Origin: Phycisphaera mikurensis NBRC 102666
GTDB taxonomy: Bacteria > Planctomycetota > Phycisphaerae > Phycisphaerales > Phycisphaeraceae
Direction of reading: 5' to 3'
Length of the DNA: 32,000 nucleotides
Assembly: GCF_000284115.1 (NCBI RefSeq)
Contig: NC_017080.1
Location: 2,640,001-2,672,000 of the forward strand
Part shown: positions 7,595 through 16,248 of the stretch, piece after piece
Layout of the letters: each line of letters opens with the position of its first letter
Position numbering within the stretch: position 1 is the stretch's first letter
Position numbers and translations under genes: made by a program
The notes under the pieces: generated by a model
Databases searched by the model: none
The model's input: the letters and a program-made list of their open reading frames with translations, nothing else
Told to the model about the DNA's origin: nothing

Positions 7595-7652
7595 GCGCCC
7601 GATTTTCCGCGGACCGCCGCTCGCCGTGCCGCTCCGCGGGCACGGTCCGCGG
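7595..7652. repeat. REP-like hairpin element, copy A (GCGCCCGAT-N3-CCGCGGACCGC-N22-GCACGGTCCGCGG)
   Basis: The 46-nt hairpin at 7607-7652 has stem sequences identical to the hairpin at 16203-16248, and both are preceded by the same GCGCCCGAT 9-mer. It is intergenic, downstream of the TPR gene stop. Confidence 0.5.
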
Positions 7653-13585: not shown

Positions 13586-14152
13586 TCAGACCGTGCTGAT
13601 GTCCTCGATCTTCTCGCTCACGAGCGTCTCGACCTGCCCCTCGTGCCGCTTCACGAGCTCCTGCACGTCGTCCTTGTAGCCCTTGACCTGGTCCTCGGAG
13701 AGGCTGACGTCGTCGCTCTTCTCCATCTGGTCGAGCGCCTTGTTGGCGTCGCGCCGGGCGTTGCGGATCGTGATCTTCGCCTGCTCGCCCATGGCCTTGA
13801 CCGACGCCGAGAGCTGCTTGCGCCGGTCGCCCGAGAGCGGGGGAACCGAGAGCCGGACGGTCTTGCCGTCGACCATCGGGTTCAAGCCCAGGCCGGCACG
13901 CTCGATGCCCTTGGCGATCTCCTTCGCCGTCGAGGGATCGAAGGGCTTGATGAGGATCTGCGTCGGCTCGGGCACCGTGATCATCGCGAGCGAGCGCAGG
14001 TCGGAGGTCGCGCCGTAGGCGTCGACCTTCACGAATTCCACCAGGCCCGCCGAGGCCCGCCCCGTGCGGATGCCACGCAGCTCGTGCCGGAGGTACTCCA
14101 CGCCCTTCTCCATGGCCTCTTCGGCCTCCAGCATCGTTTCGTCGGGGTCCAT
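13586..14152 (-). CDS. frr: Ribosome recycling factor
   Basis: The full-length 188-aa protein has MEKGVEYLRHELRGIRTGRAS, LDxVKVDAYG-type and IRNARRDANK motifs characteristic of RRF. Confidence 0.95.
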   Translation of the reverse strand: MDPDETMLEAEEAMEKGVEYLRHELRGIRTGRASAGLVEFVKVDAYGATSDLRSLAMITVPEPTQILIKPFDPSTAKEIAKGIERAGLGLNPMVDGKTVRLSVPPLSGDRRKQLSASVKAMGEQAKITIRNARRDANKALDQMEKSDDVSLSEDQVKGYKDDVQELVKRHEGQVETLVSEKIEDISTV

Positions 14153-14174
14153 GCACGCAACCTAGCGGTTGCAT

Positions 14175-14600
14175 CTGCTTCGCGGGTGGTCCGTCGCTTC
14201 GCTGCGCTCGCTCTTGTTCCTCGTTTGCGCCTCCGACCGGGCAGAGCCCGGTCTGCGGGTGGCGCGTGTTGCCACGAACGGCACGCGTGCGCGGCGGCAC
14301 GCGAGGGGTGAGCGTCACCAGCTTGGGCACACGACGCGTGACGCACGCCCGCGTCGGTCGCGGACGACGCATCACGTGGACAGGGGAGCGAGCACGGTCC
14401 GCGGCACGCTGATCGGGCGACTCCACGAGGTGGTGCGGACGGGGCCTCGCATCAACCCGGATCGCGGACCGACTCGCTGTTCTCGGGCAGACGTGCCGGC
14501 AGTGGCAACACGCCCCACCCGCAGCCGGGGGTTCCCCCCGGCGGAGGCGGAAACGGGAAGCAAGAGCGAGCGCAGCGTCGCGAGGATCACCCCGCCGCAG
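14175..14600. repeat. Long inverted-repeat (MITE-like / structured RNA) element filling the pyrH-frr spacer
   Basis: The left arm (about 14175-14290) is the reverse complement of the right arm (about 14487-14600). The core 14195-14275 vs 14502-14582 matches at 66 of 81 positions by hand alignment. Each arm has its own perfect sub-hairpin with a different sequence. The central roughly 196 nt is unique. Confidence 0.7.
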
Positions 14601-15423
14601 GCGGGAGCGCAGCGCCCACGACGGTTCCGATCTTCTCACCGCGGACCGCGGCGGCGATGTTGCCGGGCTTCTTCATGTCGAAGACGAGGATCGGGATGTC
14701 CCGCTCGCGGCACTGCGCGAAGGAGCCGGTGTCCATGATGTCCAGGTCGCGGGCGATGGCTTCGTCGAAGCTGAGCGTCTCGAATCGGACGGCGTCGCCG
14801 TGCCGCTTGGGGTCCTTGTCGTAGACGCCGTCGACCTTGGTCGCCTTGAGCAAGACATCCGCGTTGATCTCGGCGGCGCGGAGGCTCGCGGCGGAGTCGG
14901 TGGTGCAGAAGGGGTTGCCGGTGCCGCCGACGAAGATGACCACGCGCCCCTTCTCGAGGTGTCGGATCGCCCGGCCGCGGATGAACGGCTCGGCGACCGA
15001 GGAGACGGCCAGCGCCGAGAGCACGCGGGCGGGCTGACCCAGCGACTCGAGGCCCTCCTTGAGCGCGAGCCCGTTGATGACGGTGCCCAGCATGCCCATC
15101 TGGTCGGCCACGGCCTGGTCGATGTGGCCTTCGGCGGCGAGCGTGGCCCCGCGGATGATGTTCCCGCCGCCGACGACCACGGCCACCTGTCCGCCCTCCT
15201 TCACCGCCGCGGCGACCTCGCCCGCGATGACCTGCAGCTCGTTGCCGTCGATGCCGAAGCCGTTTGCTTCGCAGAGGGACTCGCCGCTGAGCTTCAGGAC
15301 GACGCGGCCGTAGCCGGGGGGCGGGGAGTGGGCGGGGAGGTTCTGGATCAAGGGGTTCTCTGGCGTTCCGAAGCGGCCTCGCGGCGTTGCGGAAGCTACC
15401 GCGCCGCGGACCGCGGGCTCCAT
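14587..15423 (-). CDS. pyrH: Uridylate kinase (UMP kinase)
   Basis: YGRVVLKLSGESL, VVVGGGNIIRG, DQMGMLGTVINGLAL, GGTGNPFCTTDSAASLRAAEI and LLKATKVDGVYDKDP are canonical PyrH motifs. ATG 15423 gives an N-terminal extension of about 27 aa. An in-frame TTG at 15351 is an alternative start. Confidence 0.9.
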   Translation of the reverse strand: MEPAVRGAVASATPRGRFGTPENPLIQNLPAHSPPPGYGRVVLKLSGESLCEANGFGIDGNELQVIAGEVAAAVKEGGQVAVVVGGGNIIRGATLAAEGHIDQAVADQMGMLGTVINGLALKEGLESLGQPARVLSALAVSSVAEPFIRGRAIRHLEKGRVVIFVGGTGNPFCTTDSAASLRAAEINADVLLKATKVDGVYDKDPKRHGDAVRFETLSFDEAIARDLDIMDTGSFAQCRERDIPILVFDMKKPGNIAAAVRGEKIGTVVGAALPPAAG

Positions 15424-15459: not shown

Positions 15460-16146
15460 TCAGTGACGACGGAAGAGGTCCGCGACCATCGCCCAGTCCT
15501 CGGCCCCGATGCCCAGGTCCTCGGGGCCGCGTGGCCAGCCGGGATCCGCGGACCGGGGCCGTTTTGCGGGCTCCGGGCCGGCGGTCCGCGGCGTCGGCCT
15601 CGGCTTCACCACCGGGCCGGCCGCGACGGCGTCCGCCGTCGCGGCCTCCACCTCGGCGAGCAGATCGCCGCCGATGCCCATCGCCCGCATCCAGCCCTCC
15701 GCCTGACCGGGGATCCGCTCGGGCGCGGCCGGCCGGCGTACCCCCCGCTCCCGCAGCGGCTTGCGGGCGTGCGCGGCGAGCTTCCGGACGAAGGATTCGG
15801 TGTCGACCGGCCTGACCTTGCGCTTCTTGGCGGCCCGCCGGATCTCGCGGTCGTCGGTCACGACGGCGAGGCGCCGCGGGGCCGAGGCCTCCTCGATGAG
15901 GCCGATCAGCACGTCGTCCGCCGTCCGCGACGGGCCCGCGTACCGCATCCTCGCCGGCCCGCCCGCGTCCCCCGCGACCGGCCCGCCGGGCTTCACGCCG
16001 CCGTCGGCGACGACGATGACGCTGCCCGCGCCGCGGTCCCAGCGGCTGCCGACGAGCAGCTCGCACAGCCGCCGCTCGTTCAGCCCGGCCAGCACCGGCG
16101 GCATCGCCGCGTGCAGCAGGTTGTAGCAGTCGATGAGCAGCCGCAT
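15460..16146 (-). CDS. NYN/PIN-like domain protein, YacP/Rae1-like putative ribonuclease with a Pro/Arg/Ala-rich C-terminal tail
   Basis: The start is ATG 16146 (MRLLIDCYNLLHA...), inside track ORF 15460..16950. The pattern LLIDxYNLL ... VIVVADGG ... TADDVLIGLIEE ... AVVTDDREIRRAAKK matches the YacP-like (DUF901, COG3688) fold. Confidence 0.7.
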   Translation of the reverse strand: MRLLIDCYNLLHAAMPPVLAGLNERRLCELLVGSRWDRGAGSVIVVADGGVKPGGPVAGDAGGPARMRYAGPSRTADDVLIGLIEEASAPRRLAVVTDDREIRRAAKKRKVRPVDTESFVRKLAAHARKPLRERGVRRPAAPERIPGQAEGWMRAMGIGGDLLAEVEAATADAVAAGPVVKPRPTPRTAGPEPAKRPRSADPGWPRGPEDLGIGAEDWAMVADLFRRH

Positions 16147-16188: not shown

Positions 16189-16248
16189 GCGCCCGATCGG
16201 ACCCGCGGACCGCGGCCGGCGGGGGCCCCGAGCCCGCACGGTCCGCGG
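16189..16248. repeat. REP-like hairpin element, copy B (GCGCCCGAT-N5-CCGCGGACCGC-N22-GCACGGTCCGCGG)
   Basis: It has the same 11-nt left and 13-nt right stem sequences and the same 46-nt hairpin length as 7607-7652, with a different 22-nt centre. It is intergenic, just downstream of the HMA-MauE stop on the minus strand, so it may act as a terminator/stabiliser hairpin (no U-tract). Confidence 0.5.

Follow-up and report, generated by a model that had tools for sequence, protein, structure and literature searches.

The spacer between pyrH and frr in Phycisphaera mikurensis NBRC 102666 holds, with high probability, two copies of a dispersed noncoding gene-end repeat, both old and diverged, that face each other head to head ('-> <-'). 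The element is best read as a non-autonomous selfish repeat of a MITE/REP-BIME-like kind, and its dispersal, in copies 50-85% identical to each other, suggests that it has been mobile. This repeat explains both the atypically long pyrH-frr spacer and the odd PyrH C-terminus of this planctomycete, and no fewer than six housekeeping genes have had their final codons replaced by it. The matter is relevant for annotation, as C-terminal extensions made by a repeat otherwise pass for lineage-specific protein features. A search of the literature found no paper describing this repeat family. The family further connects, in a way that can be tested, the placement of stop codons with the rare tetranucleotide CTAG and an IS630-family element within a genome of 73% GC; it is this association with CTAG and with the IS630 element that most deserves to be followed up.

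An inverted pair of repeat units fills the pyrH-frr spacer

Positions at this locus are those of the window, the whole stretch of 32,000 nucleotides that was analysed; positions elsewhere in the genome are those of the chromosome. The features discussed below are the following.

13586..14152, minus strand: frr (ribosome recycling factor) coding sequence; ORF with a Pfam RRF match (E = 5e-51), ATG at 14152-14150
14157..14172, minus strand: short hairpin GCAACC-GCUA-GGUUGC immediately before the frr start, seen in the sequence and as a predicted stem in the fold
14171..14293, plus strand (antisense to the pyrH-frr mRNA): left arm, one unit copy; covariance model match 14178-14289, 114.9 bits; nhmmer E = 8e-22
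14235..14253, no strand: left sub-hairpin, from the sequence, the repeat search and family-wide covariation
14294..14483, no strand: centre of the composite, unique in the genome
14484..14617, minus strand (operon sense): right arm, one unit copy; covariance model match 14488-14599, 107.7 bits
14524..14542, no strand: right sub-hairpin, from the sequence, the repeat search and family-wide covariation
14587..14613, minus strand: repeat-derived 3' end of pyrH, AALPPAAG codons plus TGA; same nucleotide motif and peptide in the CrtI-like and UDG genes
14587..15339, minus strand: pyrH (UMP kinase) coding sequence; Pfam AA_kinase match (E = 2e-34)

The pyrH reading frame is open up to 15423 and the start at 15339 is provisional. 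Just upstream of it, an ORF on the minus strand (15460-16146) resembles the YacP-like NYN family weakly, scoring 22.0 bits where the Pfam cut-off is 24.6.

A long inverted repeat had been pointed out at this place in an earlier note made by eye, and a repeat search recovers it with ungapped arms at 14182-14293 and 14484-14595 (112 nt each, 77% complementary, 190 nt apart). The hand count given there for the core, 66 matches in 81 positions between 14195-14275 and the reverse complement of 14502-14582, is exact on recount. When one indel of 8-13 nt is allowed, the arms reach ~14171 and ~14617 with 100 matches in 139 aligned columns; at these gapped boundaries they are 123-134 nt long and the composite measures ~447 bp, rather than the 426 bp first proposed. 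Equally exact on recount is the observation that 8 of the 15 core mismatches fall inside a sub-hairpin (14236, 14238, 14242-14244, 14246, 14250 and 14252) both versions of which are still self-complementary: the left one reads GACCGGG-CAGAG-CCCGGTC (14235-14253) and the right one GCCGGGGG-TT(C)-CCCCCGGC, also given as GCCGGGGG-TT-CCCCCCGGC (14524-14542). The idea that this sub-hairpin has been kept by compensatory change is borne out in the two arms and across 13 members of the family described below. The left arm is a short 5' variant of the repeat unit, with its TGA mutated to TGG, and the right arm is the long 5' variant GCTGCGCTCCCGCCTGCGGCGGGGTGA.

The distance between the pyrH stop codon and the frr ATG is 434 nt, as had been stated. 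The pyrH TGA (14587-14589) lies inside the right arm, as was also claimed, although the overlap was underestimated: not ~4 but 8 preceding codons are inside the arm. The description of the whole as one element has to be amended as well. Repeat DNA does fill the spacer, but it consists of two unit copies plus a 190-nt centre that occurs once in the genome and elsewhere matches stretches of 22 nt at most. ORFs lying in or overlapping this centre (14266-14409 on the plus strand and 14375-14590 on the minus strand) gave no match in a Pfam scan. Like a MITE, the composite has terminal inverted repeats and is small and noncoding (~447 bp, the ORFs in it or overlapping it being without Pfam match). 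Among the three options that had been put forward for it, a MITE-like insertion, an RNA processing or stabilising structure and an sRNA locus, the first fits best; no target-site duplication was found for it, nor could an autonomous element with matching termini be shown.

A dispersed family with a conserved block and a covarying hairpin

The arms belong to a family with 15 full-length copies, 2 truncated copies and ~12 weak or fragmentary matches in the 3.88-Mb genome, all of them chromosomal, as collected by BLAST, iterated nhmmer searches and a covariance model (R1) for which 13 distinct copies served as the seed; nhmmer returned 23 matches in the genome itself. Many of the weak matches comprise the core hairpin with its flanks alone. 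The repeated entity is the arm unit and not the 447-bp composite, which as a whole is found once. The unit is noncoding and ~112-145 nt long. It begins upstream of the ungapped arm with GCTGCGCTYCCGCCTGCGGCGGGGTGA, the short variant being devoid of 8 nt of that head, and it runs ~17 nt beyond ...GCCGGCAC to a total of ~145 nt. Read 5' to 3', it is composed of a TGA-bearing head, a near-invariant block of ~25 nt (TCGCGTCGCTGCGCTCGCTCTTG), a hairpin and a conserved tail (GTGGNGCGTGTTGCCACTGCCGGCAC).

The hairpin, of 7-8 bp and set in CCTCCG-[stem-loop-stem]-CTGCGG, is the sole fold consistently predicted among the unit copies. Across the 13 copies 85% of cells are paired compared with 68% in shuffles, 5 of 8 pairs have changed on both sides, and the covariation score is 0.40 against 0.17, with 0 of 500 shuffles as high, a control that overstates significance given that the same alignment both defined and tested the hairpin and that the copies are related. 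When the test is repeated in slid registers, pairing falls to 28-52%. It should also be considered that short DNA palindromes can stay perfect through template switching without selection. Conservation of the block TCGCGTCGCTGCGCTCGCTCTTG together with a covarying hairpin is what one would expect if a protein such as a transposase or recombinase recognises the unit, or if a local nucleic-acid hairpin is formed.

Most family copies are single units. Only three '-> <-' pairs exist in the genome (pyrH-frr, 407.2 kb and 3172.5 kb), each with a centre unrelated to the others. The right, sense arm at pyrH-frr is closest to the copy at 407235 (85-90% identical) and the left, antisense arm to the copy at 700952 (80% identical), while the identity of the two arms to each other is 75% over the model region. 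With respect to the family consensus, the arms have 2 derived states in common and 17 private ones (11 and 6).

Several of the other loci have peculiarities of their own. In the pair at the 407-kb locus the arms measure 148 nt and the centre 78 nt, and both convergent genes end within the arms; a 588-bp unit made of the CrtI-like 3' end plus one inverted pair is present three times in tandem there (407200-408800), a triplication that leaves two pseudo-3'-ends between the two convergent genes. The third pair (3172540-3173039) also lies between convergent genes, one of them flgH; its left copy is devoid of the central hairpin and its centre contains an intact copy of the 46-nt palindrome described below. 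Right after the single unit that follows ppc, at 700780-700850, the 5' motif recurs as CTGTGCTTCCGCCTGCGGCGGGGG, and this unit is bracketed by a direct repeat of ~24 nt, a situation not found for any other single unit. Between the units at 556.8 kb and 559.3 kb there are ordinary genes (acyl-CoA synthetase-like and acetyltransferase-like, as read from the sequence by eye) and no transposase, and a composite transposon was rejected for these units. An integron attC-like reading of the family was likewise discarded by inspection, as the genes before the units are housekeeping genes without relation to each other, the units alternate in orientation and R''/R' core sites are absent. A sigma-54 promoter in the GGCAC region was also discarded by eye, since both the spacing and the -12 element vary among copies.

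Outside this genome no convincing member of the family was recovered. BLAST of the arm in 40 relatives and the family model in 150 genomes of the class gave no convincing copy; in 100 genomes of the same family the model produced one marginal match (E = 0.006), and the pyrH loci of 50 relatives contained no copy (best E = 0.04). Plasmid and phage collections gave no family match. Among the ~250 other Phycisphaerae genomes searched, the repeat family was thus found in this genome only.

Units are placed at gene ends and donate stop codons

For eleven of the 13 distinct units, the stop codon of a protein gene that runs in the same direction lies no more than a few nt from the unit's start, the extragenic position at gene 3' ends that is typical of REP elements. 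The proteins concerned are PyrH, an SDF symporter, a CrtI-like amine oxidase, PEP carboxylase, FlgH, a DUF2071 protein, enolase, a UDG/DUF4130 protein, MnhG, the protein encoded upstream of the unit at 556810 and the product of a 469-aa ORF, this last ORF and its unit having been separated later by an IS. One further unit follows tRNA-Thr, and the sole unit without gene-end placement is the antisense arm at pyrH-frr. Under a strict gene filter, 6 of the 13 units count as placed at a stop codon, whereas random positions do so at a rate of 2.2% (P = 2e-7); a manual count of at least 10 of 13 against a rough intergenic-only null of ~0.28 gives P ~3e-4 by back-of-envelope arithmetic.

Six genes run into the unit and end at its TGA. 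The tails encoded by the unit read ...GAALPPAAG* in PyrH, ...DAALPPAAG* in the CrtI-like oxidase and ...DLLPPAAG* in the UDG protein, these three having (A/L)LPPAAG* in common, and variant unit-derived tails are present in the SDF symporter, the DUF2071 protein and MnhG. A unit thus lies at the stop codon of a gene in its own direction or shortly behind it, and its 5' end bears a TGA that can be in frame; a gene running into the unit gains a short tail, typically (A/L)LPPAAG, plus a new stop.

The pyrH-frr spacer of relatives is short

Frr is 56-73% identical to the Frr of same-family genomes, and PyrH is at most 76-77% identical to the nearest PyrH, from Phycisphaeraceae MAGs in the genome and metagenome collections. 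In 25 genomes of the same family the pyrH-frr spacer measures 12-170 nt with one exception of 512 nt, and across 89 Phycisphaerae loci of the genome and metagenome collections its median is 94 nt (interquartile range 65-127 nt). The exception is the closest same-family relative (G024, L029 986-1486), where the spacer harbours an unrelated inserted small ORF that starts MKRRLRRLVCVLLVVIGIGIPGCEN... and looks lipoprotein-like; no inverted repeat was detected in that spacer and its fold is no better than those of shuffles.

The PyrH proteins of relatives end in GT[RKTL]V followed by 1-5 residues, the nearest ones in GTRVG*, GTRVGS* and GTRVGI*. In P. mikurensis the protein ends in GTVVG followed by AALPPAAG*. 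These short spacers and short tails in relatives indicate that the spacer has been expanded here and that the 8-residue PyrH tail and its stop derive from the repeat, an origin that had been suspected for the tail and that also agrees with the presence of the same motif and peptide at the end of other genes. In terms of events, a pair would have landed in an originally short pyrH-frr spacer, adding 8 residues to PyrH and bringing the spacer to 434 nt. It is plausible that removal of 14171-14613 restores the ancestral arrangement, reading ...GTVVGNR-TAG, 9 nt and the frr ATG; the boundaries 14171 and 14613 used in this reconstruction were taken from the family alignment and are uncertain by ~2 nt. 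The small hairpin at 14157-14172 is probably a leftover of the original spacer. A CTAG is included in it (14162-14165), and its TAG is possibly the original pyrH stop codon.

CTAG and a resident IS630-family element

CTAG is extremely rare in the 3.8-Mb chromosome (553 sites, 0.145 per kb), and genome-wide TGA and TAG account for 81% and 15% of stop codons, respectively. Against this background, 4 of the 5 native stop codons beside units are TAG (P = 0.002 with respect to the 15%), and four units, the left arm among them (5 nt, at 14162-14165), have a CTAG 0-5 nt beyond one of their ends. The same tetranucleotide is used by a resident IS630-family element of 1258 bp with two ORFs (HTH_32 and DDE_3), present in 7 copies that are 98.8-100% identical (1341637-1342894, 1702923, 2688615, 2746529, 3246031, 3438715 and 3579835). 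All seven are inserted in CTAG with a TA duplication (CTA|IS|TAG), and the element is therefore probably active. The copy at 1.3416 Mb is located exactly on a stop-codon/unit junction.

There is also similarity in sequence between the two. Next to the terminus on the transposase side of the IS, nt 17-60 are similar to the 3' half of the unit over a common block of 25-44 nt, for which local alignment gives z values of up to 8.9 and nhmmer E = 0.006 against the IS. The 18-mer TCTGCGGGTGRGGCGTGT, with up to one mismatch, has 13 genomic occurrences, of which 7 are IS ends, 5 are in units and 1 is elsewhere. This CTAG-targeting element of the same genome is the best lead on how the unit spreads.

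In its strongest form this lead would make the units, and the pair, MITE-type derivatives of the IS630/Tc1-mariner family that the transposase of the resident IS630-family element mobilises in trans. The direct repeats CCTGCGGCGGGGTGA and TCTGCGGGTGGGGCG in each long arm would be putative transposase sites (IR/DR-like), and landing in CTAG would explain stop-codon placement in DNA of 73% GC. The enrichment of CTAG and TAG at unit boundaries, the insertion of 7 of 7 IS copies in CTAG with one of them exactly on a unit boundary, the block of 25-44 nt and the near confinement of the 18-mer to IS ends and units (12 of 13) all speak for it. Nevertheless, no TA duplication at (C)TA(G) abuts both termini: the unit termini are 0-5 nt off CTAG and the pyrH-side end has no TA. 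The outer (5') ends of the unit are not significantly like the terminal repeat of the IS (z of at most 2.7), single units prevail over inverted pairs, and the 99% identity of the IS copies denotes recent spread whereas units at 50-85% identity are old. Taking both sides together, an origin of this kind is a tentative possibility that we consider doubtful.

Neither the pair nor the single units have at their outer ends a direct repeat that could represent a target-site duplication. Y1_Tnp genes are present at 3.006 Mb and 3.574 Mb, and a RAYT link was rejected since no unit match lies near either of them. No GTAG-like 5' head of the REP type appears in the family alignment, where the unit is ~112-145 nt long with one 19-nt hairpin. 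A 46-nt palindromic element (CCGCGGACCG-N26-CGGTCCGCGG) has ~700 copies in the genome, 680 of them with the exact 46-nt geometry; further copies in the window are at 7607-7652 and 16203-16248, and a degenerate 47-nt copy with 3 mismatches and a 27-nt spacer occupies 14358-14404 in the centre of the composite. Association between this palindrome and the units was discarded, as a palindrome copy lies less than 400 nt away from 3 of 16 units, where chance would give ~2.4.

Predicted consequences for the pyrH-frr mRNA

The RNA of 14140-14620 on the minus strand has a predicted folding energy of -317.9 kcal/mol against -236.4 +/- 6.5 for dinucleotide shuffles (z = -12.5; none of 100 shuffled sequences folds as well). 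According to this model, the pyrH-frr mRNA could fold into an imperfect duplex of ~110-130 bp that would bring the pyrH stop near the frr start. A duplex of this length would be a plausible RNase III substrate and the genome contains an RNase III gene, so that cleavage or changed stability of the transcript is possible. Ribosomes finishing pyrH would have to melt the outer duplex, and because the partner strand of the duplex ends 19 nt before the frr ATG some coupling is conceivable.

These predictions raise the question of whether the structure is a selected cis-acting RNA element of the operon (an RNase III site, a stabiliser of the pyrH 3' end or an attenuator) co-opted from repeat DNA. REP, ERIC and Correia repeats have RNA-level effects of this type in other bacteria. 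QMITE copies have likewise been proposed to affect neighbouring genes via ribonuclease processing (PMC5896051). The very stable predicted fold (z = -12.5), the presence of the RNase III gene, the position of the duplex base near the pyrH stop and the frr start, and the fact that the pyrH-frr pair is the only '-> <-' pair of the genome between co-directional genes are all in agreement with such a role. On the other hand, the arms are not co-evolving: with 2 common against 17 private derived states there is no sign of the selection for the long duplex to be expected of a dedicated RNase III or stabiliser structure, the arms are only 75-77% complementary, and 8 of the 15 core mismatches break the long duplex yet keep the local hairpins. 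As far as sequence comparison goes, the arm-to-arm duplex is not conserved in the way the block and the hairpin are. Moreover, nothing comparable is present in this spacer in any related genome examined, and a scan of both strands of the spacer returned no terminator-like site. We therefore regard a selected cis-acting function as unlikely. A more ambitious version would see the unit as a gene-end module of an undescribed kind that homes to stop codons via the rare CTAG/TAG and swaps in its own tail and TGA, and that, as an inverted pair, folds out of the mRNA to keep the pyrH stop and the frr start adjacent, preserving or regulating Frr-PyrH translational coupling; this is an improbable proposal, to be held as speculation.

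An independent sRNA gene or antisense RNA locus within the spacer would find a precedent in Coxiella, where MITE copies give rise to sRNAs (PMC5896051), and the centre of the pair is unique to the pyrH-frr locus. Such a gene is nevertheless very improbable: the Rfam 15 scan of 13900-14900 gave, at E up to 1, a single unrelated chance match (E = 0.59) outside the element, no sigma-70-like promoter and no terminator-like site were detected on either strand of the spacer, and the locus is not conserved in relatives. Finally, a recent local inverted duplication or a chance GC-rich palindrome is refuted, for although high-GC DNA yields many short chance inverted repeats (13 minor ones in the repeat search here), a pair of 112-nt arms with 77% complementarity and z = -12.5 is far beyond shuffles, 15 full-length copies occur at unrelated loci, and each arm is nearer to a remote copy than to its partner with few derived states in common, in accordance with the earlier note's view that the pair is no recent duplication.

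Comparison with known repeat systems

The gene-end repeat described here resembles, in the first place, those bacterial MITEs and small mobile sequences that overlap gene 3' ends, namely QMITE1 and QMITE2 of Coxiella burnetii (PMC5896051) and RU-1/ERIC, RU-2 and RU-3 of enterobacteria (PMC2759123, PMC2229807). Like these, the unit is small, noncoding, hairpin-forming, dispersed and lineage-restricted, and it resides in 3' UTRs and intergenic spacers, often overlapping ORFs so that the C-terminus is altered and a stop is provided. It differs from them in that no target-site duplication was detected for it, in that the repeated entity is a single asymmetric unit, with 3 inverted pairs only and unrelated centres, in its ~15 full-length and strongly diverged (50-85%) copies, and in its very tight placement relative to stop codons and CTAG.

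The REP, BIME and REPIN elements of proteobacteria are comparable as well, being extragenic, just past stop codons and within operons, with a conserved hairpin maintained by compensatory change, and occurring singly, in inverted pairs or as mosaics that include other repeats. REP/BIME elements are known to stabilise mRNA. Unlike REP, the unit is 3-4 times longer with only 19 nt of hairpin, has no GTAG-type head and reaches a copy number of tens rather than hundreds; unlike REPIN, it is not found beside the Y1-transposase (RAYT-like) genes of the genome.

The Correia elements (NEMIS) of Neisseria are inverted-repeat inserts between co-transcribed genes whose transcript hairpin is cleaved by RNase III, altering expression of the neighbours. 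They measure 100-155 bp and have 26-bp terminal repeats, a TA duplication and hundreds of copies. The pyrH-frr composite is similarly an inverted-repeat element between presumably co-transcribed genes with a long, here predicted, transcript hairpin, but its arms are 123-134 nt, it has no TA duplication and RNase III cleavage is in this case hypothetical. With IS630/Tc1-mariner elements and their MITEs the unit has in common the CTAG association and, through the resident IS630-family element, a block of 25-44 nt, and the two direct repeats of each long arm recall the IR/DR elements of that superfamily; the termini are nonetheless dissimilar, a TA duplication is absent, and the current IS copies are far younger than the units.

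Altogether, the repeat is not a system of a new type but a new family among the MITE/REP-like repeats, for which overlap with the ends of ORFs has been described before, and it joins the small set of bacterial repeats that donate stop codons to the genes into which they have come to lie.
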